Source: Hellea sp.
GTDB taxonomy: Bacteria; Pseudomonadota; Alphaproteobacteria; Caulobacterales; Maricaulaceae
Length of the DNA stretch: 64,000 bases
NCBI GenBank assembly: GCA_020629545.1
Contig: JAHDDC010000005.1
Coordinates: forward strand, 3,661 to 67,660
Direction: 5' to 3'
The translations under genes and the position numbers were made by a program. A model generated the notes under the pieces. That model ran no database searches. It was not told where the DNA came from and worked only from the letters and a program-made list of their open reading frames with translations. This document shows positions 5,824 to 60,543 of this stretch, piece after piece (the stretch's first letter is position 1; each line of letters begins with the position of its first letter).

Positions 5824-5860
5824 GACATTCTCCTGCAATTTCTTAAAAAATAGCAGGTCG

Positions 5861-5890
5861 TGCGCATTTTTCAATGCGATATAATACGCA
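5861..5890. promoter_or_regulatory. TGCGCA-N18-TACGCA inverted repeat (site A), upstream of hsaA
   Basis: The sequence is TGCGCAtttttcaatgcgatataaTACGCA. It ends 38 nt upstream of the hsaA ATG at 5823. Confidence 0.7.
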
Positions 5891-5923: not shown

Positions 5924-5952
5924 TGCGTAACAATTCTGAAATTTACTACGCT
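5924..5952. promoter_or_regulatory. TGCGTA-N17-TACGCT variant site (A2), 33 bp from site A
   Basis: The sequence is TGCGTAacaattctgaaatttacTACGCT. It overlaps the stop codon of the ligase gene. Confidence 0.5.
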
Positions 5953-7457
5953 TTTAGCATAAACTTCATTACCTTCCCCGAAGCATTACGCGGCAATGAA
6001 TCGTGGAAGATGATTGATCTTGGCACTTTGTAATTAGCCATATTATCCCGGCACCATTTAATGATAGCGTCAGCATCAAGCGCCCCAGTTTTCACAATAT
6101 GAGCCTGTGTAACTTCACCGAGCCTCTCATCGGCAATACCAACAACCGCAACATCGGCTATATTGTCGTGCTGCAACAGCATTTTCTCAAGTTCTGCAGG
6201 ATAGCAATTAAACCCCCCAACTATGACCATGTCTTTCTTTCGGTCTGTAACTTTAATATATCCATTCAAATCCTGAGTCCCGATATCACCAGTCTTAAGC
6301 CAACCATCACTCGTAATCGTTTCAGCGGTCGCAGACGGGTTATCAAGATAGCCCTGCATAACATTAAATCCGCGCACCCAAATCTCGCCTTGCTCACCTG
6401 AAGGAACGTTCTTGCCTTCATCATCTACAATACGAAGCTCTGTCCCCGGGAGCGGACGTCCACATGTTGTCGCAATAGTCGCAAAATCGTCCCCTTTTCG
6501 GCACAGACTAACGACGCCCGACGACTCTGTAAGGCCGTAGGCGGAGTACACATCATCAATTCCCAAATCCTCACTCATGGCGCAGATCAAATCTACTGGG
6601 ATGGTCGTCGCCCCCGTTGTCGCAACTCTGAGTGAGGAGATATCGTGTTCTCCAAGGTCCGGATGCGCCAATAAAGCTTGAAAGATAGTCGGCGCGCCGG
6701 GCATAACCGATATTTTGTCTGTTTCAATTTGTATCAAGACAGCTTTGGGGTCAAAAACTGCCAACGGAAAGATCGCCGCCCCGACCACCAAACAAGCTAG
6801 CCAACCGGCCTTGTATCCAAAACTATGGAAGAATGGATTTACCACCAGATACCGATCATCCCCATTCATTCCGATGGCAGATGTGAAAGCTTCAAACACT
6901 TTGACGTTTTGGCCATGAGTTGTCATGGCGCCTTTAGGCGCGCCTGTTGTACCCGATGTAAAGATGATGTCAGACACGTCATCAGCGTCCGCATTGATTT
7001 CCGATACAATATCATTGTTATTTATAAATTCCTCAAAAGCATCCGTATTCTGATTGTCTTTGAGTAAAACGATATCTTTCAATTCCGGGAGGGCCTGACC
7101 ATCTAGCATGGATGGATAGTCATGCCCCAAAAAGCCTTTGACTGTGAACAATAGTTTGCTTTGAGATCGGCGTAAGATATCGGCGGCTTCCATCCCTTTA
7201 TATCGTGTATTTAACGTCACAAGAATGGCTCCGAGCATCTGCCCAGCCAGGGCCGCCACAATCCATTCTGCGCAATTTGGCGCCCAGATCGCAAATTTAT
7301 CGCCCTTAGAAATTCCCTTCGCCTGCATAGCACCGGCAGTGCGTTGCACGTCAGACTTCAACCGGGAGAAACTATAAGTCGCCTCACCGTCCTGAATTGC
7401 AAGAGCATCTGGTCTTTTTTCAGCCTGCCTAAAAAGCAATCCCGGGATAGTTGTCAT
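5946..7457 (-). CDS. AMP-dependent acyl-CoA synthetase (FadD3/HIP-CoA ligase-like)
   Basis: It carries the adenylation motif FTSGTTGAPKG, then YGLTE and a C-terminal GK. Its 503 aa and its position next to hsaA are as seen for FadD3. The specific substrate is an inference. Confidence 0.8.
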   Translation of the reverse strand: MTTIPGLLFRQAEKRPDALAIQDGEATYSFSRLKSDVQRTAGAMQAKGISKGDKFAIWAPNCAEWIVAALAGQMLGAILVTLNTRYKGMEAADILRRSQSKLLFTVKGFLGHDYPSMLDGQALPELKDIVLLKDNQNTDAFEEFINNNDIVSEINADADDVSDIIFTSGTTGAPKGAMTTHGQNVKVFEAFTSAIGMNGDDRYLVVNPFFHSFGYKAGWLACLVVGAAIFPLAVFDPKAVLIQIETDKISVMPGAPTIFQALLAHPDLGEHDISSLRVATTGATTIPVDLICAMSEDLGIDDVYSAYGLTESSGVVSLCRKGDDFATIATTCGRPLPGTELRIVDDEGKNVPSGEQGEIWVRGFNVMQGYLDNPSATAETITSDGWLKTGDIGTQDLNGYIKVTDRKKDMVIVGGFNCYPAELEKMLLQHDNIADVAVVGIADERLGEVTQAHIVKTGALDADAIIKWCRDNMANYKVPRSIIFHDSLPRNASGKVMKFMLKA

Positions 7458-7512
7458 AATTTTCTCAAATTTCTACGCAATTCGAGGGTTTTACTATACA
7501 AATCATGCAAAT

Positions 7513-7542
7513 TGCGCAACATAAGGACTAAAATAATACGCA
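7513..7542. promoter_or_regulatory. TGCGCA-N18-TACGCA inverted repeat (site F), ligase/SDR divergent region
   Basis: The sequence is TGCGCAacataaggactaaaataaTACGCA. An extra TACGCA half-site lies at 7474-7479, 33 bp to the left. Confidence 0.7.
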
Positions 7543-8794: not shown

Positions 8795-9993
8795 CGTCTT
8801 TTCGCGGCTGGCATGTTTTAGGGGCAAGTTTCATTACAGCAATGCTGCTCTCCGGCGCGACGTTTTACTCGTTCCAACATTTCGTCACCCCGATTGAGAC
8901 CGAATTTGGACTGAGGCGCGATCAAACGAATATCGGGATGATGTTGTTTTTGCTCAGTTCAGCTGTTTGGGCCGCTATTGTTGGGAGAAGCATCAAAGCA
9001 ATTCAGCCGCGCCTATTGGCCTTGATTGGAATCATTTCGTTCACGGCGGGGTTCTGGTTTTTATCCATAGCCCGTTCGCCGCAACAGCTCGCGCTCGCTA
9101 TAACCTTGCCGATTGGGTTTGGCTTTACGGCGTGCGGCCCTTTTGTCGCCAATGTCCTGACCACCAATTGGTTCTATCAAAAGCGCGGACGAGCGCTCGG
9201 GATTGCCGCCGTAGCGACATCAGCTGGGGGCTTCCTGGTACAGCCCATCTTTAGCCATCTTATTGCCACTCATGGTTGGCGCAAAGCCAGTCAGATCATG
9301 GCAATTGGGATCGCAATAATTTCAGTATTTTTAGTCCTCAAATATTTCATCAGCAGGCCGGAAGATATAGGACAACATCCTGACGGTATGGCGCAGGAAA
9401 TTCCTCAAAAAGTAACATCAGCCAACCCGGCTCGTATTATTCGCAATCGTGATTTCTGGGTTATAGCCGTCGCATGCGGCCTGTTGCTTGGGAGTGATCA
9501 GGCACTATTAGCATCCCTGAAACCTTTTGGCGAAAACATTGGGTTTAATAATGTTCAAGCGACACTAATTCCAACGGTCGTAGCCGGATCCGCAATTGCA
9601 GGAAAGCTTGCCATCGGCTGGATGATTGAAAGATACGACAAGCGCTACGTTTTTGCGCTTGTCTGTCTGTCCAACGTCCTGTTCTTGCTCACTGCAGTGC
9701 TGGTGACAAGCTTTACGACTATGGTAATAGTCGCAGCATTTGTAGGCATGGCAATTGGCGGAATTTATCCGGTTTGGACCGGGATTACGGCAGATACATT
9801 TGGAAGAGAGTACTTCGCACCAGCGATCGGATTGATGAATATTGTGACTGTTTTATTTGCTATGGTTGCACTTGGGTTTGTTGGCAAGTCCTTTGAAACG
9901 CATCAGAGTTATGATCAGGCCTTCACGGTCCTTATTCCCGTAGCTGTCCTGGCGGCTATGGTGATGATGTTCGTCAGAACGCGAAAAGAGTAA
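8791..9993 (+). CDS. MFS transporter
   Basis: The 400-aa protein is highly hydrophobic with about 12 predicted helices. Confidence 0.8.
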   Translation: MTSFRGWHVLGASFITAMLLSGATFYSFQHFVTPIETEFGLRRDQTNIGMMLFLLSSAVWAAIVGRSIKAIQPRLLALIGIISFTAGFWFLSIARSPQQLALAITLPIGFGFTACGPFVANVLTTNWFYQKRGRALGIAAVATSAGGFLVQPIFSHLIATHGWRKASQIMAIGIAIISVFLVLKYFISRPEDIGQHPDGMAQEIPQKVTSANPARIIRNRDFWVIAVACGLLLGSDQALLASLKPFGENIGFNNVQATLIPTVVAGSAIAGKLAIGWMIERYDKRYVFALVCLSNVLFLLTAVLVTSFTTMVIVAAFVGMAIGGIYPVWTGITADTFGREYFAPAIGLMNIVTVLFAMVALGFVGKSFETHQSYDQAFTVLIPVAVLAAMVMMFVRTRKE

Positions 9994-10921: not shown

Positions 10922-11764
10922 ATGACAGAACACCCCAATTACGAAACCCTAATAGTCAGTCAAAACAGCAACATACTGACCATAACTCTCAATCGGCCTG
11001 ACAGATTGAATGCACTATCTCAGAAACTTATGGATGAGCTCAAGGCGGAGCTCGCAAGAGCGGCCGCTGACGACAACGTTTCCGTTCTCATTATCAAGGC
11101 AGCGGGCCGTGCGTTTAGCGTAGGTTATGACTTGCAAGAGGATAATTGGATCACCTCCCAATATCCGGCTAATTTCCCTGACGGCGTTGACCGTGAGATA
11201 GACACAAAAGATATTCAGATTCTGCTGGATTATTGGCTTGATATGTGGCGCTTTCCCAAGCCGATCATTGCGCAGGTTCAAGGTGCCTGTTTGTCAGGAG
11301 CAGGCGAATTATTGGCCGCCGCGGATATTGTCATAGCCTCAGAGAATGCCAGCTTTGGTCATCCTGCTGGCCGCGATCTTGGTATCCCGCCGACGGTGTT
11401 TTTCTGGCCGGTTCTGATGGGGATGCGCAAGGCCAAGGAATTGCTTTATACCTCCAAATCAATCGGAGCAGCAGAAGCGGAGAGCCTCGGCCTGATTAAT
11501 TACTGTGTTACCCAAGATGAACTCGAGGCCAAAACAATCGAGCTTGCGCGTGACATAGCCCGAACCCCGGTCGAGCATTTGAAAATACTAAAACAATCCG
11601 CCAATAACTTTTACGAAAATATGGGCGTGCAACAAAGCACTGACGCAGCCGTTATTCTCGACGCCGAATTCCATCAAAGTCCGGTATTTTTAGCATTTTT
11701 CAAAATGGTAAGAGAGAAAGGCATGAAAGCGGCACTTGCCGAAAGACAAAGGCTTTTTGGATGA
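10922..11764 (+). CDS. Enoyl-CoA hydratase/isomerase (crotonase) family
   Basis: It has ITLNRPDRLNAL and AAGRAFSVGYDL oxyanion-hole type motifs. A GGAG sits upstream of the ATG. Confidence 0.85.
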   Translation: MTEHPNYETLIVSQNSNILTITLNRPDRLNALSQKLMDELKAELARAAADDNVSVLIIKAAGRAFSVGYDLQEDNWITSQYPANFPDGVDREIDTKDIQILLDYWLDMWRFPKPIIAQVQGACLSGAGELLAAADIVIASENASFGHPAGRDLGIPPTVFFWPVLMGMRKAKELLYTSKSIGAAEAESLGLINYCVTQDELEAKTIELARDIARTPVEHLKILKQSANNFYENMGVQQSTDAAVILDAEFHQSPVFLAFFKMVREKGMKAALAERQRLFG

Positions 11765-12720
11765 GCAAACCAGACCCAGGCACTTTCGCAAAAGACTTTC
11801 GCAATGCCCTTGGGCAATTTGCGACCGGAGTCACCATTGTAACGACCATGGATAGAGATCATAAACCTGTCGGCGTCACTGCTAGTAGCTTTAACTCAGT
11901 TTCCCTCGACCCACCTCTTATTCTTTGGTCTCTGGCTAAGACGGCCAATTCCATGCCGGCATATCAAAACAGCGGCGGTTTTAATGTCCACGTACTCGCC
12001 AGTCACCAAGATAATCTATCTAATCAATTTGCAAGGCCCTCAGATGACAAGTTTAGGGGCGTTGATTGGAAGAGTTGTGAAAATGGATTTCCGCTCCTTC
12101 CCGAATATGCAGCTTTATTTCGATGCAAAACGACTTTTCAATATGAAGGTGGAGATCACATTATTTTTGTCGGCGAAGTCGTTGATTTTGAACGTAAAGA
12201 CCTACCTCCTCTGCTTTTTCACAGCGGGCGATATGCTGATAAACGTACTAAGGGCGAAACCGACATCAAAGAACCGGGTGTAAACTTGGCCGACGGGACC
12301 TTCTCCAATGATTTTCTGTTATACCTAATTTCGCGTTCACACTTTCAAACTTCGAATCCGGTTCGTCAGGCCGCAAGTGATATCGGACTTTCAGAAACTG
12401 AATATTTCTGTATCTCAATTCTCGCTATGAATGGCGAGCTGCTGGAAGAGGAAATCATCAGCCGCCTTGAACATACTGGCCATATTCCGGATTCTGACAT
12501 TTTTGGCAGACTGGAGCGCAAGGCCCTGATCACGCGGGAGAGACAATCAGCCAAGATCAGCGAACAAGGTCGCAATATTTTCGTTGAATTTTTGTCGTTA
12601 TCCAAATCATTGGACGAGCAAATCAAGAAACATTTCACGCCGGAAGAGTTATCAAATGCAATTACCTTCTTGCAAAAAGTCATTGATATAACGGGAACCG
12701 ATATTCCCGAGCTTTGGTAA
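11761..12720 (+). CDS. Flavin reductase (HpaC/HsaB-like) fused to a C-terminal MarR-type winged-helix domain
   Basis: Residues 1 to about 165 are a flavin-reductase domain (GQFATGVTIVTT...SFNSVSLDPPLILWSL...GGDHIIFVGEV). Residues from about 185 to 319 look MarR-like (LSETEYFCISILAMNGELLEEEIISRL...GRLERKALITRE). The ATG overlaps the previous stop (ATGA). Confidence 0.7.
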   Translation: MSKPDPGTFAKDFRNALGQFATGVTIVTTMDRDHKPVGVTASSFNSVSLDPPLILWSLAKTANSMPAYQNSGGFNVHVLASHQDNLSNQFARPSDDKFRGVDWKSCENGFPLLPEYAALFRCKTTFQYEGGDHIIFVGEVVDFERKDLPPLLFHSGRYADKRTKGETDIKEPGVNLADGTFSNDFLLYLISRSHFQTSNPVRQAASDIGLSETEYFCISILAMNGELLEEEIISRLEHTGHIPDSDIFGRLERKALITRERQSAKISEQGRNIFVEFLSLSKSLDEQIKKHFTPEELSNAITFLQKVIDITGTDIPELW

Positions 12721-21191: not shown

Positions 21192-21221
21192 TGCGCAATA
21201 TTTTCTTGGATTTACTACGCT
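21192..21221. promoter_or_regulatory. TGCGCA-N18-TACGCT inverted repeat (site B), SDR/KstD-like divergent region
   Basis: The sequence is TGCGCAatattttcttggatttacTACGCT. Confidence 0.65.
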
Positions 21222-21254: not shown

Positions 21255-21271
21255 TGCGTAGTTATTACGCA
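21255..21271. promoter_or_regulatory. TGCGTA-N5-TACGCA compact palindrome (B2), 33 bp from site B
   Basis: The sequence is TGCGTAgttatTACGCA. It ends 21 nt upstream of the KstD-like ATG. Confidence 0.55.
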
Positions 21272-21291
21272 AAATAGCGACGAATTTATTT

Positions 21292-22992
21292 ATGACTCCA
21301 CAAGACGAACATTGGTATACGAACGTAGAACCTGTCCACAAAATCGATAATATCAACGCCATAGAATGGGATGTCGAAGCTGATGTTGTTGTCGTCGGTT
21401 TGGGCGGCGCAGGCGTCGCTTGTGCTCTCCAATCGCTGGAACTTGGTAACTCAGTGATTGCGATCGATAAGTTTGAAGGCGGTGGCGCCACCAAAGCCAG
21501 CGGCGGAGTTATCTATGCCGGCGGCGGAACATCGATTCAGAAGGCTGCAGGCGTCGAAGACACGCCAGAGAATATGTTCAATTATCTTAAGATGGAAATC
21601 GGTGAAATTGTCTCCGATACGTGCTTGCAAGAGTTTTGCGATCAAAGCGCTGAGACTGTTGAGTGGATGATCGGACATAATGTTGATATGCGGCCGACCC
21701 TTTGGCCCAAGAAAACTTCTTTTCCGGGGCCAACATTTTTTCTATATCACTCCGATAATAGCCTAATTCCGACTTACAAGGCCAATGCCGAACCGGCGGC
21801 GCGAGGCCATCGGGGCTATGCGCCACTAGAACAAAGCAAAAAGGCAACCAATTTAGGCGGCGCATTTTATCACCCCCTTAAAGACAAGGCGCTCGATATG
21901 GGCATGAGGTTTTTTGACTACCATGAAGCGCGGCAACTCATAACCGATAGTTCGGGGCGAGTAGTCGGATTAAAAGTGCTGCGGTTTGCAAATTCTGATT
22001 CCAAAAACAAATATCTCGACCTTCGCGCGAAAGCTCACAAGCTCATGGTGCGATTCCCTGCTATAATTCCGGGTGCAAAATTTTTCCTCAAGCGCGCTAT
22101 TAAAATGTTGGCGCAAGCGTCTAAACTTGAGACGGCGCGTGAGGCCGTTTTTATCAAAGCTCACAAAGGTGTTCTGTTATCATCGGGCGGATTCGTTTTT
22201 AACTCCAAAATGTTGAAACATTACGCGCCCAAATATACTCGGGCTTATCCATTAGGAACCGATGGAGACAATGGGGCTGGCATTCGTCTGGGACAGACCG
22301 CCGGCGGGGCTGTGGCCAATATGGACCGAATGACCGCCTGGCGGTTTATCAATCCGCCGCTTTCATTTGCAAAAGGAATGATCGTCAATCTCTCGGGAAA
22401 ACGATTTACAAATGAAATGGTTTACGGCGCCACACTTGGCGTGAATATGGTAGAAAACCATGACGGCGAAGCGTGGATGATCATGGACAAGGCTATTCTC
22501 AATAAGGCCTTAGAGGAAGTTGAGGGTGACAAGGCCCTGGATTTCCAAAGACAACTTGCCCAACTCAATGCCCGCTTTGGAACAAAAAAAGCCAAAACAT
22601 TAGCGCAACTCGCTCACAAAATCGGTATTCCTTCTCAAGCTTTAGGGGCCGAAGTCGCAGCGTATAATAGTTTTGCGAAATCCGGCAAAGATCCCTTTGG
22701 AAAGGCTGCTGACGATATATCCACAATTGGAATAGCACCATTTATCGCAATCAATATTGGACTATCAGCGAAACTGTTCCCTTGCCCTGCCTTAACGCTT
22801 GGTGGCTTGAAAGTCGATGAGTCGAGTGGTGCTGTACTGGATGATCGCAATAAATCCATAGGCGGGCTTTATGCTGCGGGTCGCAATGCAATTGGAGTCG
22901 CATCTTGGAATTATGTCAGCGGATTATCAATTGCCGATGGAATCTATTCTGGTCGGCGTGCCGCCCGATCAATGGCGAAGTCAAAAGCCTAA
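21292..22992 (+). CDS. FAD-dependent 3-ketosteroid dehydrogenase-like flavoprotein (KstD/TesH/TesI family)
   Basis: It has the dinucleotide fold DVVVVGLGGAGVACAL plus GGATKASGG. Its 566 aa fits the fumarate-reductase-like flavoprotein layout. Confidence 0.7.
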   Translation: MTPQDEHWYTNVEPVHKIDNINAIEWDVEADVVVVGLGGAGVACALQSLELGNSVIAIDKFEGGGATKASGGVIYAGGGTSIQKAAGVEDTPENMFNYLKMEIGEIVSDTCLQEFCDQSAETVEWMIGHNVDMRPTLWPKKTSFPGPTFFLYHSDNSLIPTYKANAEPAARGHRGYAPLEQSKKATNLGGAFYHPLKDKALDMGMRFFDYHEARQLITDSSGRVVGLKVLRFANSDSKNKYLDLRAKAHKLMVRFPAIIPGAKFFLKRAIKMLAQASKLETAREAVFIKAHKGVLLSSGGFVFNSKMLKHYAPKYTRAYPLGTDGDNGAGIRLGQTAGGAVANMDRMTAWRFINPPLSFAKGMIVNLSGKRFTNEMVYGATLGVNMVENHDGEAWMIMDKAILNKALEEVEGDKALDFQRQLAQLNARFGTKKAKTLAQLAHKIGIPSQALGAEVAAYNSFAKSGKDPFGKAADDISTIGIAPFIAINIGLSAKLFPCPALTLGGLKVDESSGAVLDDRNKSIGGLYAAGRNAIGVASWNYVSGLSIADGIYSGRRAARSMAKSKA

Positions 22993-23456
22993 GGTACGAT
23001 AATTTTCGCAAGACGATTATTATATTTAATCACGTCTACGGCAACCGTCGTTTCGACAAGCCTAACGCCTTCCAGATCCAGGATTTGATTGCTGGCGACA
23101 CGATGAACTTCCGGGAGCCCCTCGAATAGCCCGATAGCAAGAATATCAAACCGGCCCAATAAGATAATGACGCCGTTTATTTCCGGTATTTTCGCAACAT
23201 TCTTAGCAACCTTTTTGATCTGTCCTTGTTCGGCGTGTATCCCAATATAGGCTAGTTGTGGACGATCCAAATGCGCCATATTTGTGACGGCCGTAAAACG
23301 AATGTAGTTCTCTTCTTCAAGACGTTTAACCCTCGAACGTATAGTGCCCTCAGTGTAACCGAGTTCGGTCGCAATCTTACGATTAGATAGTCTGGCATCA
23401 CCAGATAAAAGCTCGATAATTTCCCGATCGAGATCGTCAATATTGTAATCATTCAT
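22989..23456 (-). CDS. Lrp/AsnC-family transcriptional regulator (second of a tandem pair)
   Basis: It has an N-terminal HTH (LDREIIELLSGDARLSNRKIATELGYTEGTIRSRVKRL) followed by a RAM-like domain. Its ATG overlaps the stop of the upstream paralog (TGATG). Confidence 0.85.
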   Translation of the reverse strand: MNDYNIDDLDREIIELLSGDARLSNRKIATELGYTEGTIRSRVKRLEEENYIRFTAVTNMAHLDRPQLAYIGIHAEQGQIKKVAKNVAKIPEINGVIILLGRFDILAIGLFEGLPEVHRVASNQILDLEGVRLVETTVAVDVIKYNNRLAKIIVP

Positions 23457-23917
23457 CAGATCGGTGCCACGTCAAAATCGAACTTGATTATATCGACCGC
23501 AAACGAAGGATCGATACTCCTAACGCCCTTAACTTTGGACAGTTTCTCAAGAAGAAAATCACTCATATTTTCTAGGCTAGGTAAAGTCACAAGAATTTCA
23601 ATATCGTGCTTCCCACTGACTAATTGTACGCTAGCGACCTCTTCCAAGCCGGCCAAATCTTGCGCAACATCATTTGCACGACGTCCCTTTACGTCTACGC
23701 CGATCGGAAGCAGGACATCATAATTGTAGGCTGAAAAGTCAGACACAGCGACAATTTTCATTGCCTGTGCTTTTTCCATTTTTCGAATTCGGGAGGCGAT
23801 GACGGTTGTCGTCACATCCAACAATTCCGCAATACGATGATTACTCGTCCTGCCGTCCTGTTTGAGAATTTCAATTATTTTCAAATCGATATCTGAAAAC
23901 TCATATGACACAGTCAT
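23456..23917 (-). CDS. Lrp/AsnC-family transcriptional regulator (first of a tandem pair)
   Basis: It has an HTH (LKIIEILKQDGRTSNHRIAELLDVTTTVIASRIRKM) followed by a RAM-like domain. Confidence 0.85.
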   Translation of the reverse strand: MTVSYEFSDIDLKIIEILKQDGRTSNHRIAELLDVTTTVIASRIRKMEKAQAMKIVAVSDFSAYNYDVLLPIGVDVKGRRANDVAQDLAGLEEVASVQLVSGKHDIEILVTLPSLENMSDFLLEKLSKVKGVRSIDPSFAVDIIKFDFDVAPI

Positions 23918-23975: not shown

Positions 23976-24009
23976 AGTGCGTAATTCTACCCCCTCAAAA
24001 ATACGCACT
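23976..24009. promoter_or_regulatory. AGTGCGTA-N18-TACGCACT inverted repeat (site C), upstream of the AsnC pair
   Basis: It has perfect 8-bp arms. It lies 59-92 nt upstream of the ATG at 23917. Confidence 0.7.
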
Positions 24010-31662: not shown

Positions 31663-31692
31663 TGCGTAGTTTTAGCAGGCTTTAACTACGCA
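31663..31692. promoter_or_regulatory. TGCGTAGTT-N12-AACTACGCA inverted repeat (site D; 6-bp cores spaced by 18), MFS/OYE divergent region
   Basis: It has perfect 9-bp arms. The left arm ends 1 nt from the MFS ATG (31661). Confidence 0.7.
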
Positions 31693-31745
31693 TTTAAAGG
31701 ACTTTTCAGACATAAATATCAATTTCCATCAATATTTTTCCATAT

Positions 31746-31756
31746 TTTTGCGCAAA
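31746..31756. promoter_or_regulatory. TTTTGCGCAAA near-palindrome upstream of the OYE gene
   Basis: It lies 42 nt upstream of ATG 31798. The core TTTGCGCAAA is a perfect 10-bp palindrome. Confidence 0.4.
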
Positions 31757-35829: not shown

Positions 35830-35924
35830 GTGTTTTCCATCTAATATTCGTTTCTGGGCTGAAAACGCGACTTTGTCAGCGTGGAAAACATTCATTAATC
35901 AACAGAATTATGGAAGTTTCCATT

Positions 35925-36755
35925 TCATAATTTGCCTCCTGAATCTTTCAAATGTTTCTCGGCTATTTTTTTTCCGGCAAGATTGCCAAGCCAAGGGAAA
36001 AAGCGTGAGATGTAATCGAATATATAAGCGTCACGACCTATACGAACCTTTTTCTTATTTTTCTTGATGGCGCCCACAATTTTACGAACGGCGACATCTC
36101 GATCTGTTCCCATTTTCATGGCTAATTCGTAGTTTTTGCGGGCAGCTTCGACATCATCACTGTTCTCAATAGTCGCCAGAATCATGTCTGTGCGAATTGC
36201 CCCAGGATGTACATGAGATACGCCAATTCCTACCGCGCCCCATTCACCCCATAAGGCTTCTGATAACTTTTCAACTGCGGCTTTGGTCAGGCAATATGAA
36301 CTTTGCGCGGGAAGTCCGATAAAGGCTGTCATAGATGACATATTGACAACGTGGGCTCGATCAGCGGCTCGCAAATGTTCATCAAAGAAATGCAGTCCAT
36401 AAAGCACTCCCCAGAGATTAATCCCTATGATTTTGTCCCAATCCTCCATGGTATGAGTAGAAAAATTCTTTTGAAGCGTAATACCTGCATTGTTCATCAA
36501 GATATTGACCTTGCCATGAGCGGCTATAACATCAGCCGCCAGCTTTTTCATCGCGTCACGATTGGTAACATCCGCGACATGTAGCGAGACTTTCTGATCT
36601 GTCTCGAAGCTTGCCGCAAGTTTATCCAGCGAGTCTTGTGAAATATCGACAAGCGCAAGCGCACACCCCTCTTCCGCGAGAGCTTTGGCCACGCCAGATC
36701 CTATTCCGCCGCCCGCGCCCGTAATCACGGCAACATCCCCTGCCTCAATCCTCAT
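35925..36755 (-). CDS. Short-chain dehydrogenase/reductase with extended C-terminus
   Basis: It has TGAGGGIGSG and YCLTKAA. Confidence 0.85.
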   Translation of the reverse strand: MRIEAGDVAVITGAGGGIGSGVAKALAEEGCALALVDISQDSLDKLAASFETDQKVSLHVADVTNRDAMKKLAADVIAAHGKVNILMNNAGITLQKNFSTHTMEDWDKIIGINLWGVLYGLHFFDEHLRAADRAHVVNMSSMTAFIGLPAQSSYCLTKAAVEKLSEALWGEWGAVGIGVSHVHPGAIRTDMILATIENSDDVEAARKNYELAMKMGTDRDVAVRKIVGAIKKNKKKVRIGRDAYIFDYISRFFPWLGNLAGKKIAEKHLKDSGGKL

Positions 36756-36757
36756 GA

Positions 36758-37135
36758 TTATTTCCTTCCTATACGGGGTTTAAGTCCCATATCTGTATGG
36801 TAAAAGCTTTCATGGGTTTTCAGACCCCAACCAATCATACGATCAAACGCAATATGAGCGCCCCAAATAAGCGCAACGGCCTTGAAAACTGAATTGCCTG
36901 TTTGCATCCAAATAGTTGCGAGTAATATTGGCCACAAGAACCAGTGAGTCATATTATACATGATACCGCCAAGACGCGGGCTCTTCAGATACCCAATAGC
37001 GCCTGCATCAGGCAATAAGAACAAGATCAAAAAGAAAAGCCAGCTGTGCCCGCCCAAATAATACAGCCATAGACAAACTAAGAGTATAGCCAATGCTTCC
37101 ACTCGGCGATGCACGACAGGATTATTAGGCAACAT
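36758..37135 (-). CDS. Small integral membrane protein (DUF4260-like)
   Basis: It has four hydrophobic helices. I set the start to ATG 37135 (MLPNNPVVHRR), which overlaps the end of the upstream OYE gene by 11 nt. Confidence 0.55.
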   Translation of the reverse strand: MLPNNPVVHRRVEALAILLVCLWLYYLGGHSWLFFLILFLLPDAGAIGYLKSPRLGGIMYNMTHWFLWPILLATIWMQTGNSVFKAVALIWGAHIAFDRMIGWGLKTHESFYHTDMGLKPRIGRK

Positions 37136-38345
37136 GCGCAACCTCCTTTTTATCTTTGAGCACGCAGCGAATTCCATCCGGATGCTGAATTAACGGCACA
37201 CAAAAATTGCAATGGGTGCATCCACTATCATAGACCGGATCATGTTGAGCATTTTTGACAAATTCTGGATCTATCAATAATGGACGCCCGATCTGAACAA
37301 AATCAAAACCGGCTTCAAAAACCCGATCCAGATCGGCCCGGGTCGAAACCCCGCCAACGTATATAACTGGGCAGCCTACCGTTTCTTTGATGCGTTTCGA
37401 TGCCTCAAGGAAGAATGTAGGCTCATAAGGATAGTTCTTCCACATCAATGGTCCCATAATCTTGTAAATGAACTTCGACGCGGCGCTAGATGCCATTGCA
37501 GCCATACCTTTTGCTATGGATTGCCCCCGAAATAAATACATCGAGTTATAACTAGACGTACCGCCGCTTGGCACGATTCCATCTATGCCAGCCTGATCTA
37601 GGGATTTTGCGACTTCGATACCTTGCTCATAGGTAATTCCACCTTTGACGGCATCGGTCATAGATATCTTGCCGAGGATTGGGAAATCATCGCCAACTGC
37701 AGCCCGTGCGGCTGCGAGGCATTCCAGCGGGACTCGCATGCGCTTTTCATGATTACCCCCATATTCATCTGTACGTTTATTGGTTTTCGGGCTGATAAAT
37801 TGAGACAAGCCATATCCATGACCAAAATGAATTTCCATGGCATCAAATCCAACGTCCTTCATAAAGGCCGCGGCATTCCGATAAGTCTCGATCAAATGGG
37901 CTATGTCCTCATGCGTCATGGCCGGAGCAATGGGGCGTCCAGCTGTTAAACCTATCCCAACAAACATTTTGGATGGTCCCTTTGGCGGCTGATCTCGTTT
38001 GAGATCTTTATTCTGGGAAAAATGTCCACAATGCGTGACTTGTCCCGAGACCTTAACACCGGTGGTTTTCAGCTCTGCTATTAAGGCTGAAAGTTCGTCT
38101 CGAATTCCATCATGCAGCCACATCATGGACTCCATAATACGGCCATCAGCTTCTGTTGTGCAGTAAGATAATGTTGTTAGCCCGATACCGCCTTCTGCAA
38201 TTTCCTTATGAAAGTCCAGCAATCGCTGCCCTGGAACTCCGCCCGGCGTCATACCTTCAAAAGTCGCCGCTTTAATAATGCGGTTTCTGAGATTTAGATT
38301 GCCGAGAATAGCCGGTGCGAAGGGATCTATTTTAGACACGGGCAA
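37125..38345 (-). CDS. Old-yellow-enzyme-family FMN oxidoreductase with C-terminal 4Fe-4S motif, short form (paralog of 31798-33033)
   Basis: It has RIIKAATFEGM, EIHFGHGYGLSQF and C-x2-C-x2-C-x11-C (CTHCNFC...C). The start is TTG 38345 or GTG 38339, either overlapping the upstream gene. Confidence 0.75.
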   Translation of the reverse strand: MPVSKIDPFAPAILGNLNLRNRIIKAATFEGMTPGGVPGQRLLDFHKEIAEGGIGLTTLSYCTTEADGRIMESMMWLHDGIRDELSALIAELKTTGVKVSGQVTHCGHFSQNKDLKRDQPPKGPSKMFVGIGLTAGRPIAPAMTHEDIAHLIETYRNAAAFMKDVGFDAMEIHFGHGYGLSQFISPKTNKRTDEYGGNHEKRMRVPLECLAAARAAVGDDFPILGKISMTDAVKGGITYEQGIEVAKSLDQAGIDGIVPSGGTSSYNSMYLFRGQSIAKGMAAMASSAASKFIYKIMGPLMWKNYPYEPTFFLEASKRIKETVGCPVIYVGGVSTRADLDRVFEAGFDFVQIGRPLLIDPEFVKNAQHDPVYDSGCTHCNFCVPLIQHPDGIRCVLKDKKEVAHVA

Positions 38346-39228
38346 CTGCCAGATATTGTGCCTTTGGATGCATTTCCAATCGGTCTAAATCACCTCCCAG
38401 ATATTGATCCGCTATGTCTCCAATTGTTGGAAATTCTGATTTAGAAAAATTTGCACCGGCAAACCTATTGGCGAGCGCCACCGTAGAATATTCACTTAAA
38501 AATGGTTCTCGCATCCCAGCGACAATTTTACGAAGATCATCAACTGATGATTTTTGCTCATTGGTCGCTGTTTCATAACTCGGCGAAACAAAATCCATGA
38601 TTAAGGTGCTTCCACTCGGAAATCCTCCTAACACGTCTAAAGTTCCTTTAACGGCATCATCGGTCAAATACATTTGGACTCCGAGCCATGAGAAAACAGT
38701 GATTTTATTTTTACTCACGCCTCCAGCCGTTAAAGCGGCATCCAGAGTGGTATTTTCAAAATCAAATGGCACGAATGTTAAGTTGTCCGGAATTTTCACA
38801 TTACCCTTCAACAAGCACTCTTTTTTCCACGATTGACTGTCTGGATGATCAATCTCAAATACTTTCAAACCGGTAAGTAATTCAGGTTCACGATACGCTG
38901 TTGAATCAAGACCTGCCCCCAATACTACAAATTGGGACGCTCCTTGAGCCTTCGCTAATGCCAATTCTTCTTCGACTAGGCGCGCGCGAATACACACTGA
39001 ATGTTCCAGTTGGCTGATGAATTTTTGAGCCGTTTCATTATCACTCAATGCGGAAAAAGCTTCGTGAATTTGATCCAAATATTGAGAGCTTAGCTCGGGA
39101 CTAGATGCTCCACTCAAAAGACCTGCTAGGCTGTCTCGCAGAATTTTGGGCTCTGGTTCATGAAGAAAATGCCTGGCCCTTAGCATGGCAACCATAAGAG
39201 CTGTCTGACTGGGCTTGCCGTCTTCCAT
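38332..39228 (-). CDS. Class I SAM-dependent methyltransferase (leucine-carboxyl / mycobacterial O-methyltransferase-like family)
   Basis: It has a VVLGAGLDS SAM-binding loop and the N-terminus TALMVAMLRA typical of this family. GGAGG lies upstream of the ATG. Confidence 0.7.
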   Translation of the reverse strand: MEDGKPSQTALMVAMLRARHFLHEPEPKILRDSLAGLLSGASSPELSSQYLDQIHEAFSALSDNETAQKFISQLEHSVCIRARLVEEELALAKAQGASQFVVLGAGLDSTAYREPELLTGLKVFEIDHPDSQSWKKECLLKGNVKIPDNLTFVPFDFENTTLDAALTAGGVSKNKITVFSWLGVQMYLTDDAVKGTLDVLGGFPSGSTLIMDFVSPSYETATNEQKSSVDDLRKIVAGMREPFLSEYSTVALANRFAGANFSKSEFPTIGDIADQYLGGDLDRLEMHPKAQYLAVARV

Positions 39229-39268
39229 AAATTCCTCCCCTTACTTGTGCTCTCCCCCTTTTAAAGGG

Positions 39269-40057
39269 CTAAGGCGGCAATCCTTCCGGTGCACCAGGCA
39301 GAACAGGCTGATAGTATCCAGCGCCCCAACCTCCATCAACCGCCAGCTCGGCACCCGTTATATAGCTCGATTCATCGCTTGCTAAAAACAATGAAGCATT
39401 TGCAATTTCAGATGGCTCACCAATTCTCTGAAGCGGAACTCGCCTAAATGCCATATTAAGCTGTTCAGGTGGAAGACCTCGAGCATTCCCCATAGGCGTA
39501 TCTACGCCTCCGGGATGAATGGAATTTACGCGAATACCTGACGTTCCTAGTTCATAAGCCAAAGACTTAGTCAATCCACGAACAGCCCATTTACTGGCGG
39601 TATAGAGGGTCAATCCATTGCATCCGCGCAGGCCATCAACAGAACTGATATTGACGATTGAGCCTTTACCTGCAGCCTTCATAACGGGAGACACATGTTT
39701 GGCACCCAGCATGGGGCCGACCGTGTTTACACCCAAAATCTTGTTGGCGTCATTGGGATTAAAATGTTCGATCGGTGTAAAGTGCACAAGACCTGCATTA
39801 TTAATCAGAGCGTCAATAGTCCCATACTTCTCTTTGACAATACTTACGACTTCTGCCCAATTCTCATCTGATGAAACATCAAGTTTAAGGAACATGGAAT
39901 CGCCGCCAATATCCTTAGCAACCGCCGCGCCCTGTTCGTCAAGCACATCAGTTAAAACAACTGATGCCCCCTCCCTGGCGAACAGGCGCGCGGTTGCCTC
40001 GCCCATACCCCGGGAAGCCCCGGTGATAATAGCGATTTTTCCTGAAAGTCTTCCCAT
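39269..40057 (-). CDS. 3alpha(or 20beta)-hydroxysteroid dehydrogenase-like SDR
   Basis: It has TGASRGMGEA and YTASKWAVRGLTK. It shows end-to-end resemblance to the Streptomyces 3alpha,20beta-HSD sequence as I remember it. The ATG overlaps the upstream stop (TAATG). Confidence 0.75.
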   Translation of the reverse strand: MGRLSGKIAIITGASRGMGEATARLFAREGASVVLTDVLDEQGAAVAKDIGGDSMFLKLDVSSDENWAEVVSIVKEKYGTIDALINNAGLVHFTPIEHFNPNDANKILGVNTVGPMLGAKHVSPVMKAAGKGSIVNISSVDGLRGCNGLTLYTASKWAVRGLTKSLAYELGTSGIRVNSIHPGGVDTPMGNARGLPPEQLNMAFRRVPLQRIGEPSEIANASLFLASDESSYITGAELAVDGGWGAGYYQPVLPGAPEGLPP

Positions 40058-41079
40058 TACATGGCAACCCGAGGGTCGTTTTCGTCCAAACCAACATAGA
40101 ATTGGCGGAAATATTTACGCCATTTCAAGATAGGGCCGTCCCCATCACAAAGAAGCGGCTTTGGACGATATTTCTTATTATCCCAAACAATCAGGTCAAC
40201 GGATTCAAAGCCGGCAGATTCCTCCCCTTCAGCATCCCCGATTGAATGTAAATAGAGATGATGCGCAAGTGCGGCTTCCTTGGATCCTTCTGGATATTTT
40301 TTCCATGTGAACATCATCCGGACCTTTGACATTTCCTCATCCGTGGGAGTCGGGGTCGCGAACATCAACATGGAAACGCCGTCCTTGGTATGGCGGTTTA
40401 TGGGTAATCCTGGACCGTGGCTTTCACCGACGATATATCCATCCATAATATCGTAGTGCCAGATATGACCATCGGCTCTTGCGTCAACACCCGGAATGAT
40501 CGGGGCCCCGTGCAAAAATTTCAAATGGGGTGTATCAACCGAATTTTCACCCATTTCCTGAATACAGGTTCCAATATCCCAAACGTGATACTTGACCTCG
40601 ACATGACCGTCCGGATCTTCCATTTCAGGAACGATCGGAAGCGGCCATAATGGCTCTGCCCCATCAGGATGATACCAAGCCCAAATCGCCCCGTATTTTT
40701 CGACAACTGGAAGCGCTTTAAGGACCGGCTTTTTCTTACAAATGCCCGGCATAACTTTGCCGTATGGAATCTTCTTGCACCAGCCTTCCGTATCGAATTC
40801 CCAATGATGAAAAGGGCAACGGATGTTACCGCCTTGAACGGTTCCGCCATGTCCAAGATGAGCCCCCAAATGTGGACAATAGGGATCGGTCATACCAACC
40901 GAGCCATCCTCACCACGAAAAAGAACCCACTCTTTTCCAAAGACTTTCTCGATTTTTATCTCACCTGGTTTAATTTCATGCGAGAAATGAACATTATACC
41001 ATCCATACGGTATTGGAAACGGACATCGCTCTAGTTCGTCACCCGTTTGGATATGATCAGGGTTTACTGGTGCATTCAT
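40057..41079 (-). CDS. Rieske [2Fe-2S] non-heme-iron oxygenase, KshA-like (second copy)
   Basis: It has CPHLGAH...CPFHHW. GGAGG lies upstream of the ATG. Confidence 0.8.
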   Translation of the reverse strand: MNAPVNPDHIQTGDELERCPFPIPYGWYNVHFSHEIKPGEIKIEKVFGKEWVLFRGEDGSVGMTDPYCPHLGAHLGHGGTVQGGNIRCPFHHWEFDTEGWCKKIPYGKVMPGICKKKPVLKALPVVEKYGAIWAWYHPDGAEPLWPLPIVPEMEDPDGHVEVKYHVWDIGTCIQEMGENSVDTPHLKFLHGAPIIPGVDARADGHIWHYDIMDGYIVGESHGPGLPINRHTKDGVSMLMFATPTPTDEEMSKVRMMFTWKKYPEGSKEAALAHHLYLHSIGDAEGEESAGFESVDLIVWDNKKYRPKPLLCDGDGPILKWRKYFRQFYVGLDENDPRVAM

Positions 41080-41093
41080 GACATCCTCCTCAC

Positions 41094-42494
41094 CTATGCA
41101 TCTTCTAATTTTTCAGGGATCAGCGCTTTGGCTGGATTTCTATCCCCAAGAACTTTGACTTTAAAACTCATCGCTGGTCCTGGCGTCGGAAAAGCTTTGG
41201 TTTTCAGCTCATAATTTGGGCTTTCCAGAGCTAGGTTTTTCCGGTGGAACAAGCGTGAAATCAGCATACCCATTAAAACTTCAGCTAGGTTTTGCCCCAG
41301 ACAAGTATGTGGCCCGCGTCCAAATGGAGAATAAGCGCCTGGCTTCATGTGCTCTTTGCGCTCATCATTGTAGCGATCAGGATCATAGGCAAGTGGGTTT
41401 GGAAAGTACTCTTCCAGATAGTGAGGTACCGAAGTTCCAATAATCAGCATTTCTTCAGCTGGAATTTTATAGCCTTCAAACTCGATTTCTTTGGTTGTCG
41501 TGCGCATCTGCCCAACAGCAACCGGCCACAAACGCATGCTCTCCTTGATACAGCCCTGAATGTAATGCAGATTCCGAACATCCATCGAGGTGACTGTACC
41601 TTTCTCGTACAGAGCATCAGCCTCGGCCTGTACTTTCTCAAGAACCCCGGGCGTTTTTAAAATGCCGTAAACAGCTCCTGACACCGTATTCGCGACCGTA
41701 TCGAGCCCGGCCACATAGGGACCGGTTAACAATACGGCTAAATCACGTTTCTGAACAAAATCAGGATCATCAATATGCGCCCTCATAATATCGCCCAGGA
41801 GGTTTTTCGGTAGGGTTCCATCCTCCGCATGCTTCATAAACCGAGCTACGGTTTTCTCCCCGAGTTCATCAACCCGTTTACTCGCTTTTTTAAATTTTGG
41901 ACTTTTCAAATACCATTTTGGCTTAACCCTGGCGACTAAAGTATTCAAAAGAAACAGAATATTGATTCTGATGTCCCGTACATATTCAAGCGGCGCTTCC
42001 CCGCTCATAAGTTCCCCAATAACCTGCACTATCATATATTGGAATGCTTCAAGCACTCCGGTCATATCGCCGTCGATCCAATCTCGTTCAATTGAATCGT
42101 CAATAAAGTGAGATATTTTATGATATTGCCCTTCGGCGGCCTCCCGGGAAAAACCCGCTCTCATAATAGCTCGCATCCTCCGATGCTCTTCCCCGTCGAT
42201 TTGAGTAAGGGTTTTTGAGGCACCGAAATGATTGACAAAATCATCCCAAAATTCTTTTGAACGCAGGCCCTCGCGTCCAGCTTTGGTTGACATGAACTTA
42301 GCCGCTTCGGCCCCCGCGATCACATATTGTTTTCGGCCGAAAACGTTGACTCGATAGACCGGTCCATATTCCTTGTAGCACCGGACAAAAAATGCGGCTG
42401 GATCCTTGCCCATTTCAAAGGTGTTCCCCACAAAAGGAATACCTTTAGCATCGGGGATTTTCTTATGACTAGAAGATTCTACGACAGCAACCAT
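41094..42494 (-). CDS. Cytochrome P450
   Basis: It has the heme-thiolate loop FGRGPHTCLGQNLA and an ESMR (ExxR) motif. The ATG overlaps the TetR stop (TAATG). Confidence 0.9.
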   Translation of the reverse strand: MVAVVESSSHKKIPDAKGIPFVGNTFEMGKDPAAFFVRCYKEYGPVYRVNVFGRKQYVIAGAEAAKFMSTKAGREGLRSKEFWDDFVNHFGASKTLTQIDGEEHRRMRAIMRAGFSREAAEGQYHKISHFIDDSIERDWIDGDMTGVLEAFQYMIVQVIGELMSGEAPLEYVRDIRINILFLLNTLVARVKPKWYLKSPKFKKASKRVDELGEKTVARFMKHAEDGTLPKNLLGDIMRAHIDDPDFVQKRDLAVLLTGPYVAGLDTVANTVSGAVYGILKTPGVLEKVQAEADALYEKGTVTSMDVRNLHYIQGCIKESMRLWPVAVGQMRTTTKEIEFEGYKIPAEEMLIIGTSVPHYLEEYFPNPLAYDPDRYNDERKEHMKPGAYSPFGRGPHTCLGQNLAEVLMGMLISRLFHRKNLALESPNYELKTKAFPTPGPAMSFKVKVLGDRNPAKALIPEKLEDA

Positions 42495-43231
42495 TAAAAT
42501 ACCTCTTGCAATAATGGTATTTCGTCTTCACCTATCTCGCGGGCAAACGCGCTGAATGCAGCCTTGATGAGGCTGTCTGTTTTTTGTTCGGGCGTCTCGG
42601 TGAATTGATCCATGACTTCGGACATAAGTGGGAAGTCGCCCGGGTCGAGCCTAGCGAACTGACGTCTTGCTACGACGTCCATCGTTTCGTCCTGAAACTC
42701 AAACTCTTGCTGCCGAATTGATTCAACAGCTCCGCCATAAGCGATAAGACCGATTTGATTGAACAGTCGCATGGCATGCATTGGCGCTATATTGCGTGAT
42801 TTCATAGCCGATAGGAACGGTTCGATCAGCTTAAAATGAACTTCAAAACCGAAATTTGATGGACTCATTGCGCTCATATAGGTTGGATTGTCCGCTAGAA
42901 TTTTTTGCAATCCCAGAACATAATCTTTCGCCAAAACCGACCAATGCTGACCAATGTCTTCAGGCAATGGGACCGCGGTCAAGGCATGTACCGCCGCTGC
43001 ACGCATCAAAGCCTTTCGGCTATCAAAATATTGATAAAGTGTCGCCGTCCCGACATTCAGATAAGTCGACAGCTTTTTCATTGTAAGCGTCTCAAGACCC
43101 ACCTCAATAGCCGCGTCCAATATCTCCTCATGAGTGAGAAGACGCGGGCGACCATAGGCGGGTGTCTTGACCGGTTTAGGCAAAGAAAATCCTTTCAAAT
43201 TGACTTTCCGAACGTTGTTCGGATATTCCAT
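42494..43231 (-). CDS. TetR-family transcriptional regulator
   Basis: It has the HTH LTMKKLSTYLNVGTATLYQYF. The start is ATG 43231 or TTG 43198. The ORF-track start at 43336 would overlap the divergent gene. Confidence 0.85.
   Translation of the reverse strand: MEYPNNVRKVNLKGFSLPKPVKTPAYGRPRLLTHEEILDAAIEVGLETLTMKKLSTYLNVGTATLYQYFDSRKALMRAAAVHALTAVPLPEDIGQHWSVLAKDYVLGLQKILADNPTYMSAMSPSNFGFEVHFKLIEPFLSAMKSRNIAPMHAMRLFNQIGLIAYGGAVESIRQQEFEFQDETMDVVARRQFARLDPGDFPLMSEVMDQFTETPEQKTDSLIKAAFSAFAREIGEDEIPLLQEVF
43205..43225. promoter_or_regulatory. TTTCCGAACGTTGTTCGGATA, degenerate copy of the TTTCCGAA-N5-TTCGGAAA palindrome at the TetR / crotonase head-to-head junction
   Basis: It matches 18 of 21 positions of the two better copies. 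It lies at the 5-prime end of the TetR gene and 8-26 nt upstream of the divergent gene. Confidence 0.6.
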
Positions 43232-43250
43232 TATGCTAAGGCCGAAGTCA

Positions 43251-44219: not shown

Positions 44220-44228
44220 TTTGGCCAT

Positions 44229-44834: not shown

Positions 44835-44898
44835 AATTGCCCTGATATATCCTTATCCGGAAAAACTATAGTCTCCTCAAACAAAAATTATTACTCGC

Positions 44899-48872: not shown

Positions 48873-48878
48873 CAGAAA

Positions 48879-49184: not shown

Positions 49185-49185
49185 A

Positions 49186-50766: not shown

Positions 50767-50824
50767 AACTCATCTTTTCGGCATTATTTCAGATGTTGGT
50801 TTATGATCGGATTTATTGCCTTCA

Positions 50825-53233: not shown

Positions 53234-53290
53234 AAAAATCCTTTACTTTCTTGCTCTTGAAAACGGCCATAAGACCACCCACACGGCGAC

Positions 53291-53311
53291 TTTCCGAACG
53301 TCATTCGGAAA
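53291..53311. promoter_or_regulatory. TTTCCGAA-cgtca-TTCGGAAA palindrome in the CoA-transferase / ferredoxin divergent region
   Basis: It has perfect 8-bp arms and a 5-bp spacer. It is roughly centred between the starts at 53233 and 53375. Confidence 0.65.
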
Positions 53312-53374
53312 ATACTTTTAATCCCGTTCCAGTCAAGCTAAAATGGATCGGAATCATAATGCAAAAGGAATGTC

Positions 53375-53689: not shown

Positions 53690-53695
53690 ACTTTA

Positions 53696-60513: not shown

Positions 60514-60543
60514 TGCGTAGCAATGTTGCATTTTTGTTACGCA
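60514..60543. promoter_or_regulatory. TGCGTA-N18-TACGCA inverted repeat (site E), TonB-receptor/SnoaL divergent region
   Basis: The sequence is TGCGTAgcaatgttgcatttttgtTACGCA. Confidence 0.7.

Follow-up and report, generated by a model that had tools for sequence, protein, structure and literature searches.

Actinobacteria have well-defined regulators for the breakdown of steroids and bile salts, namely KstR and KstR2; those of Proteobacteria are, to our knowledge, much less well defined. The analysis presented here concerns a 64,000-nucleotide stretch of DNA from Hellea sp. (Alphaproteobacteria; contig JAHDDC010000005.1, positions 3,661 to 67,660; hereafter, the window), whose predicted genes show it to be a steroid-type catabolic island, and a 30-bp inverted repeat, TGCGYA-N18-TACGCW, that recurs in its promoter regions as a candidate operator. 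Operators of KstR are contiguous palindromes of approximately 14 bp (TnnAACnnGTTnnA and AnCAAGnnCTTGnT). The KstR/KstR2 systems resemble the window in that one palindromic operator stands at many promoters of a steroid island, including those of hsaA/hsaC and kstD-type genes, and in the likely role of the regulator as a repressor released by a pathway intermediate. However, they belong to a different protein family (TetR) and use a different motif, that of the window being built as 6 + 18 + 6 bp with a free central 8 bp; the KstR consensus is set apart here by its description and not by a search of the window. Widely spaced half-sites are also found in NikR (GTATGA-N16-TCATAC) and PaaX-type operators, where short inverted arms lie about two helical turns apart and two binding modules are held apart by an oligomeric core. 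The analogy is one of geometry only: the window contains no ribbon-helix-helix or GntR-type gene, and those systems show neither 63-bp tandem arrays nor a 10.5-bp periodicity in the flanks.

The closest described family is that of the Lrp/AsnC (feast/famine) proteins, whose dimers assemble into octamers that carry their DNA-binding domains at the periphery, occupy sites in clusters, and wrap about 100 bp of DNA (PMC2995911); a hetero-octamer of FL11 and DM1 is known in vitro (PMC2995911). The operators of Escherichia coli Lrp and AsnC, Pyrococcus FL11 and LrpA, and Sulfolobus Ss-LrpB are similar to those of the window in being paired with regulators carrying HTH_AsnC and RAM domains and in lying upstream of the regulators' own genes. 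The window also resembles them in its multiple phased sites per promoter, at about 31.5 bp per dimer if 63 bp holds two, and in a 10.5-bp A+T periodicity that points to wrapping. In contrast, Lrp/AsnC dimers normally recognise imperfect palindromes of 13-17 bp (PMC2995911), with half-sites about 8-10 bp apart, whereas the window element has 6-bp, G+C-cored arms that are 24 or 39 bp apart. Likewise, the regulator would here be an obligate pair of paralogues, 29% identical, and the targets belong to steroid-ring catabolism instead of amino-acid metabolism. A comparable pair has been recorded in the bile-salt cluster of Sphingobium sp. Chol11, where two contiguous, uncharacterised Lrp/AsnC genes (NCHOL11_RS15865/RS15860) lie adjacent to each other in an alphaproteobacterial steroid cluster, but no operator, target set, or function was reported for them (PMC12882949); the adjacent pair in sphingomonad steroid clusters has so far been noted only in passing (PMC12882949). 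Caenibius tardaugens reportedly has no such pair in this cluster. The limited literature that could be searched contained no published operator matching this element, no 24/39-bp architecture, and no function for such paired genes in steroid clusters, in agreement with an earlier reading of the DNA (the sequence-only reading), which had not recognised the repeat as a published operator.

Operator sites in the window and their geometry

A scan of the window for TGCGYA-N18-TACGCW returned exact matches at 5861, 7513, 21192, 23978, 31663, and 60514, the same six sites that the sequence-only reading had placed in promoter regions, compared with an expectation of 0 from 100 dinucleotide-preserving shuffles. 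The six-site pattern is genuine, its frequency being far above what chance would give. Correcting over-long open reading frame (ORF) calls leaves all six sites in intergenic DNA; the 60514 site overlaps the SnoaL ORF only in an over-extended start, the SnoaL Pfam match beginning at residue 41. The longer arms previously described at 23976-24009 (8 bp, AGTGCGTA/TACGCACT) and 31663-31692 (TGCGTAGTT/AACTACGCA) were recovered by pattern matching, and the spacers are unrelated from site to site, as expected if the repeat is, as had been stated, not a copied element. The six sites were, however, an incomplete list. When up to two mismatches were allowed, one additional site appeared (21255-21284), and direct reading of the intergenic regions added an N17 site (5924-5952) and lone half-sites at 7474, 24042, and 31749, the first and last of which belong to degenerate partners at 7450-7479 and 31725-31754. 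Two other claims held in part. Every TACGCA had been considered intergenic on the basis of seven copies; the window holds eight, and the one at 55228 is coding while the others stand. The YTTT following the right arm was confirmed within the window, but in the wider set of sites the flank is just W-W.

A position weight matrix trained on 34 non-redundant sites of other genomes, with no window site included, scored seven window sites (the six exact ones and 21255-21284) at 22.7-30.6 bits, the best of 20 shuffles reaching 16.1 bits. The operators, partners, and half-sites are listed below without strand; bits are matrix scores, and L numbers denote other loci.

5861..5890, operator TGCGCA-N18-TACGCA upstream of the minus-strand hsaA-hsaD-hsaEGF-hsaC operon; 26.3 bits; orthologous sites L002 472 and L028 1025
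5924..5952, tandem partner operator TGCGTA-N17-TACGCT, 63 bp from 5861, overlapping the CoA-ligase stop codon; orthologue L002 535
7450..7479, degenerate partner with only the right arm TACGCA (7474-7479) kept, starting 63 bp before the 7513 operator; 13.9 bits, under the shuffle maximum of 16.1
7513..7542, operator in the divergent region between the CoA-ligase (minus) and the SDR-SnoaL-MFS-...-flavin-reductase operon (plus; SDR start 7561); 27.0 bits; orthologues L002 2126, L028 2680, and L037 603
21192..21221, operator 1 between the divergently transcribed SDR_20274 (minus) and KstD-like (plus) genes; 24.4 bits
21255..21284, operator 2 of the same region, TGCGTA-N18-GACGAA, 63 bp after operator 1 and ending 7 nt before the KstD-like start codon; 25.4 bits
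23976..24009, operator with 8-bp arms, upstream of the AsnC pair and presumed autoregulatory; 22.7 bits
24042..24047, additional half-site TGCGCA, 40 bp from the arm at 24002; eight related loci have TACGCA there, at 39 bp
31663..31692, operator between two divergently transcribed operons, MFS(OATP-like)-ligase-amidohydrolase-KshA-ECH-DUF3604 (minus) and OYE-DUF3604-acyltransferase (plus); 30.6 bits
31725..31754, degenerate partner with only the right arm TGCGCA (31749-31754) kept, starting 62 bp after 31663; 11.2 bits, under the maximum of 20 shuffles
60514..60543, operator between two divergently transcribed operons, TonB-dependent receptor-sulfatase-alkylsulfatase (minus) and SnoaL-SDR-SDR (plus); 27.0 bits

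The geometry of the element was established on a wider set consisting of the window and 37 related loci (648 kb). With at most one mismatch, TGCGTA-Nx-TACGCA occurs 63 times with N18 (22 perfect and 41 one-mismatch sites) and 11 times with N17, while every other spacer from 8 to 29 yields 0-4 sites. Intergenic DNA, which represents 7% of the sequence by crude ORF calls, holds 58 of these 74 sites (about 78%), and part of the remaining 16 are artefacts of over-long calls. Among 52 non-redundant sites, the hexamers are nearly invariant, partly by selection since the sites were chosen on their arms. Inside each arm, five bases are 86-94% A/T, the central 8 bases are free, and two W follow the arm. 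Variants of the arms are not compensated: many sites join TGCGCA to TACGCA and none joins it to a compensating partner, which indicates that the sequence is conserved and not the pairing.

Distances between half-sites peak at 24 bp for TGCGYA followed by TRCGCA (34 cases) and at 39 bp for the reverse order (33 cases), over a background of less than one per distance. Arms of the same type recur at 62-63 bp, so that arm orientation alternates at 24/39 bp with a period of 63, and CG is found at the core position of the neighbouring arm, 38-39 bp away, on 62 of 104 operator sides. Over the 33 nt beyond the arms, A+T content rises and falls every 10.5 bp in register with them (amplitude 0.122, against 0.019 +/- 0.010 for the null; none of 2000 randomisations attained it), with maxima about 5.8, 16.3, 26.8, and 37.3 bp from the operator centre. 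As a feature of base composition, this periodicity indicates a DNA-wrapping signature. Taken with the 24/39-bp alternation, it shows the 30-mer to be no isolated element but a unit within a phased array whose DNA is bent or wrapped. The earlier remark that 24 bp from centre to centre is odd for a simple dimer operator was well founded.

Two other explanations of the hexamers were considered. They could represent the -35 and -10 elements of an alternative, extracytoplasmic function (ECF)-type sigma promoter, given that their 18-bp gap resembles a promoter spacer and that the flavin-reductase and KstD-like start codons lie 8-16 nt after the downstream hexamer, as in leaderless transcripts. This is very improbable, as the hexamers are mutually reverse complementary, with complementarity extending inward or outward in two sites, and the distance from arm to start varies from overlap (TACGC-ATG in one target family) to more than 60 nt, the arm at hsaA even lying between -35 and -10; the 24/39-bp alternation of orientation would make no sense for promoters, and no sigma or anti-sigma gene is present in the window. 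The promoter explanation was rejected on the reverse complementarity, the variable start distance, and the alternating orientation. Slightly less credible still is a repeated palindrome (of the repetitive extragenic palindromic, REP, or miniature inverted-repeat transposable element, MITE, type), RNA hairpin, or terminator. The same arms do occur in unrelated metagenome contigs, either inside long REP-like palindromes beside a Y1 (IS200-like) transposase gene or in long A+T-rich hairpins, and the sub-site 21255-21271 was flagged as terminator-like. Nevertheless, the arms of the operators are not extended, their spacers are unrelated, and they stand at orthologous promoters across genomes with 58-81% identity; the lack of compensation shows that selection does not act on pairing, a stem of 6 bp closing a loop of 18 nt would make a weak hairpin, the sites gave no Rfam match at the gathering threshold, and the window has no transposase. 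The mobile-element and hairpin explanations were both rejected on this evidence.

Operator 2 holds a nested inverted repeat, TGCGTA-N5-TACGCA (21255-21271, with the internal TACGCA at 21266), which is the sub-site flagged as terminator-like, and a similar TGCGTT-N4-TACGCA is present in the hsaC/hsaA region of Novosphingobium sp. P6W (L042 10342-10357). A stricter pattern, TTGCGTA-N-W4-N8-W4-N-TACGCAA, was found at 74 metagenome loci, 16 of them in Hellea-like steroid contexts, a result that gives no clean independent estimate of specificity; most of the others look like long A+T-rich hairpins or REP-like palindromes, as judged mostly by eye and for five loci in detail. The REP-like palindromes of L064, L095, L096, L106, and L108, on unrelated contigs of about 60% G+C, have a TGCGTA-N18-TACGCA core with far longer arms (GGTCTCCACTTGCGTA...) and adjoin a gene that, judged from its sequence, resembles a Y1 (IS200-like) transposase. 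They are look-alikes of a different nature.

Conservation in related genomes and sphingomonad clusters

The closest genomes are metagenome-assembled genomes of Hellea, Algimonas, and Maricaulaceae, with KstD-like proteins 58-75% identical to that of the window. The sites are kept at orthologous promoters of these genomes, whose proteins are 58-81% identical, in the region upstream of hsaA, between the CoA ligase and SDR genes, between SDR_20274 and the KstD-like gene (two sites), upstream of the AsnC pair, between the OYE and MFS genes, and in other divergent regions. At operator 1, the TGCGCA arm and the 18-nt spacing are kept in nearly all related loci; the orthologues of operator 2 read TGCGTA-N17-TACGAA in L001, L002, L003, L008, and L028, and a relative of the 31663 operator lies between AsnC_A and OYE_1 (L008 12827). 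Perfect sites are also found directly upstream of the gene for a flavin-reductase/MarR-like fusion in at least eight related genomes, and L037 keeps the site upstream of SDR though the fusion gene is missing. Upstream of AsnC_A in L015 (~9250-9330), the operator is split by an insertion of about 45 nt forming a hairpin with a 12-bp stem (GGTAGTGTCTCA...TGAGACACTACC), which resembles a small mobile palindrome.

Conservation extends to soil sphingomonads, in which homologous AsnC pairs (42-52% identity) are found on megaplasmids, several of them inside steroid-type clusters. Plasmid pNL2 of Novosphingobium aromaticivorans carries five TKCGWA-N18-TWCGMA sites, all intergenic and all N18, located upstream of a KstD-like FAD protein gene, between two SDR genes, upstream of the AsnC pair (19775), between acyl-CoA dehydrogenase and FAD oxidoreductase genes, and upstream of an hsaA-type operon. 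A perfect TGCGTA-N18-TACGCA lies between hsaC and hsaA in Novosphingobium sp. P6W, Sphingobium herbicidovorans pMSHV, and Sphingobium sp. TomTYG65, where we estimate from base composition that about 0.002 perfect sites would be expected per 40-kb locus, and P6W has TGCGCT-N18-TACGCA upstream of its AsnC pair (19761). The arms are thus kept in orthologous promoters, both in the Hellea/Algimonas/Maricaulaceae genomes and in sphingomonad steroid clusters, as the sequence-only reading had required of a true operator. These sites also bear out its view of a single putative regulon that takes in the AsnC pair together with the operons for ring cleavage, the KstD-like enzyme, uptake, sulfatase/TonB, and DUF3604.

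The Lrp/AsnC gene pair as candidate regulator

Apart from one TetR gene (42494-43336), the regulator genes of the window are two adjacent Lrp/AsnC genes:

23456..23917, minus strand, AsnC_A, full-length Lrp/AsnC protein (HTH_AsnC-type and RAM domain), encoded first in the pair; candidate for reading the TGCGTA arm; 73-81% identity across loci
22989..23456, minus strand, AsnC_B, paralogue 29% identical to AsnC_A, its start overlapping the AsnC_A stop by 1 nt

Each gene has Pfam matches to PF13404, PF13412, and PF01037, both HTH motifs are strongly conserved, and both proteins resemble the structures of FL11, LrpA, Lrp, and AsnC over their full length. The genes are always adjacent, A then B, in the 20 related loci holding both, and they overlap by 1 base in the window and by 1-4 bases in sphingomonads, suggesting translational coupling. 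The pair adjoins the KstD-like, DUF3604, and OYE operons, and the region upstream of AsnC_A contains a full site in the window and nine related loci, with degenerate sites in three to four more. No regulator class except the AsnC pair lies near the sites in the window or in the N. aromaticivorans pNL2, P6W, S. herbicidovorans, and TomTYG65 loci, and no other is common to these five. As in described Lrp/AsnC systems, a regulator with HTH_AsnC and RAM domains stands beside the targets, the sites are clustered and phased, and one of them lies in the regulator's own control region. On this evidence from sequence and gene order, the motif is most likely read by a hetero-oligomer of AsnC_A and AsnC_B and would be the operator of a steroid-nucleus regulon, an assignment that is favoured with some confidence and some way short of certainty.

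Several observations weigh against this assignment. The evidence linking the pair to the motif is of co-localisation and conservation only. The imperfect 13-17-bp palindrome with an A+T-rich centre that is usual for an Lrp/AsnC dimer is not visible, and no second half-site lies within 8-10 bp of the arm; a second (B-subunit) half-site was also sought in the arm flanks and was not found there, the information remaining below 0.5 bit per position. The sphingomonad loci L039 and L040/L041 have homologous AsnC pairs and no sites, although these pairs may be paralogous and of other specificity. In addition, about one third of the AsnC_A upstream regions in the Hellea group are without a full site. 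Finally, the scans covered loci and not whole genomes, which leaves room for an unlinked regulator.

The operator could belong to another transcription factor, whether the flavin-reductase/MarR-like fusion (11761-12720), the TetR protein, or a regulator encoded outside the window, although this appears unlikely. The sequence-only reading had proposed the fusion as a binder alongside the AsnC pair, and there are arguments for it: the protein would be a reductase dimer with two distal winged-helix domains that could span 24 bp, its C-terminal 150 residues weakly resemble a MarR protein (2eth, E = 0.13), and the perfect site directly upstream of its gene could reflect autoregulation. The MarR-like relation comes from a PDB sequence search, Pfam giving no significant family for the C-terminal half. 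However, residues 12-298 of the fusion align with the Acinetobacter baumannii HPAH reductase C1 (5zc2, E = 1e-38), in which the MarR-like domain binds an effector and acts allosterically, its "recognition helix" blocking the NADH site (PMC11618861), a finding that disfavours the fusion. Moreover, the flavin reductase gene of the three sphingomonad clusters with perfect sites measures 513-522 nt (~170-173 aa), too short for a MarR-like domain, and the site of L037 persists without any fusion gene. The similarity to C1 and the retention of the operator beside a short flavin reductase lead us to regard the fusion as a regulated enzyme of HsaB type and not as the regulator; by analogy with C1, it may represent an HsaB that a steroid-derived ligand switches on or off. 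As for the TetR protein, no site lies near its gene, and no TetR is common to all loci. Of the two binders proposed earlier, the AsnC pair is thus favoured and the fusion is not.

As regards the binding protein, the arrangement of its subunits, the sign of regulation, and the effector, we infer the following for the AsnC pair. The 30-bp element would be the operator of a factor controlling the steroid-nucleus catabolic island, which would bind as a multimer of dimers with the DNA wrapped on its outside. One type of subunit would read the TGCGTA hexamer, with adjacent dimers recognising two hexamers 24 bp apart from either side of the junction between them; another pair of hexamers would follow 39 bp on, and one octamer could cover two operators 63 bp apart (~126 bp of DNA). 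A period of 63 bp would correspond to two dimer steps of 31.5 bp. If the heterodimers were ordered (BA)(AB)(BA)(AB) and bases were read by A only, half-sites would alternate at 31.5-d and 31.5+d, and orientation with them; the observed 24 and 39 bp would give d = 7.5 bp (31.5-7.5 and 31.5+7.5). This value is close to the half-site distance of about 8 bp in the 13-bp FL11 site TGAAAWWWTTTCA. The A+T maxima would fall where the inward-facing minor grooves lie in such a wrap, the phase having been derived after the data were seen. A more specific form of the model, an obligate hetero-octamer with alternating A-A and B-B dimer junctions, (BA)(AB)(BA)(AB), in which only A reads bases, is offered tentatively and may well be wrong; it would account for operators occurring in pairs 63 bp apart with no canonical dimer palindrome. 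Operators overlapping core promoters would keep the catabolic operons and the regulator's own genes repressed until a pathway metabolite bound to the RAM domains relieved the repression.

Promoters, neighbouring genes, and significance

The position of the operators relative to promoters bears on the sign of regulation. One promoter was predicted convincingly:

5847..5874, minus strand, predicted hsaA promoter; -35 TTGAAA (5874-5869), 16-nt spacer, -10 TATTTT (5852-5847) preceded by TG

The arm 5861-5866 lies inside the spacer of this promoter, and TTGAAA-16-TATTCT is found at the same place in L002 and L028 with a different spacer sequence. At the KstD-like gene (21292), the flavin reductase gene, and one SDR gene, the start codon follows 0-16 nt after the arm (for example, window 7561, L021 2852, and L016 4831, with relatives), leaving no room for a Shine-Dalgarno sequence and suggesting leaderless or very short-leader mRNAs. 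Operators lying over core promoters in this way favour repression. Against this, a scan for E. coli-type promoters gave a convincing promoter in one of the six regions only, that of hsaA, so that the support for repression is weak, although Alphaproteobacterial promoters deviate from the consensus; also, the AsnC operator lies ~60-90 nt upstream of the start codon, a position compatible with activation.

Pfam annotation covered 58 of the 59 ORFs of at least 100 aa that were taken as genes. The ring cleavage genes encode HsaC, HsaD, HsaA-like, and HsaEFG-like enzymes, and further pathway enzymes comprise two KshA-like Rieske oxygenases, a KstD-like FAD enzyme, a P450, side-chain enzymes of ChsH2-like and thiolase-like type, CoA ligases, CoA transferases, and two OYE reductases. 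These are accompanied by two DUF3604 proteins, MFS transporters, and a TonB-dependent receptor with a sulfatase and an alkylsulfatase. The last, truncated gene of the window resembles an aldehyde dehydrogenase, judged from its sequence. No TGCGTA-type operator is present in 35900-53700, which encodes an SDR, OYE2, a methyltransferase, P450, TetR, CoA transferases, thiolase-like and ChsH2-like proteins, and KshA2; this side-chain/P450/KshA2 part is probably under separate control, perhaps by the TetR protein encoded at 42494-43336. An Imm11 immunity-protein family match (44229-44834; PF07791, E = 4e-18) was unexpected amid a catabolic island.

The TonB receptor, sulfatase, and alkylsulfatase genes (54626-60395) are under an operator, and relatives (L018 11701-13851) encode proteins resembling a formylglycine-generating enzyme and a sulfotransferase, as judged from sequence motifs only. 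The sulfatase-type genes under the operator hint that the substrates could be sulfated steroids or bile alcohols. In Hellea-like loci and sphingomonads, the gene directly downstream of AsnC_B is SnoaL/NTF2-like (L018 16732-17181, by eye), annotated as of the NTF2 family (L044 20991-21497), or annotated as hypothetical (L045 21011-21517), and it may form part of the regulatory module.

Together with its candidate regulator, so precise and conserved an operator defines a testable regulon that reaches from marine Hellea-like bacteria to the tractable genera Novosphingobium and Sphingobium and could supply parts for steroid biosensors. It also helps annotation, since operator-bearing genes whose role is unknown, such as those for DUF3604 proteins, the OATP-like MFS transporter, the TonB receptor with its sulfatases, and SnoaL-like proteins become assignable to the same pathway, which may act on sulfated steroids. 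The system further offers a natural case for studying the wrapping and reading of DNA by a heteromeric feast/famine protein. If the obligate hetero-octamer model is true, the AsnC pair would use a previously undescribed mode of DNA recognition for these proteins, with a metabolite derived from steroids as its signal in place of an amino acid, and it would be the first master regulator to be defined for steroid-ring degradation in the Alphaproteobacteria.

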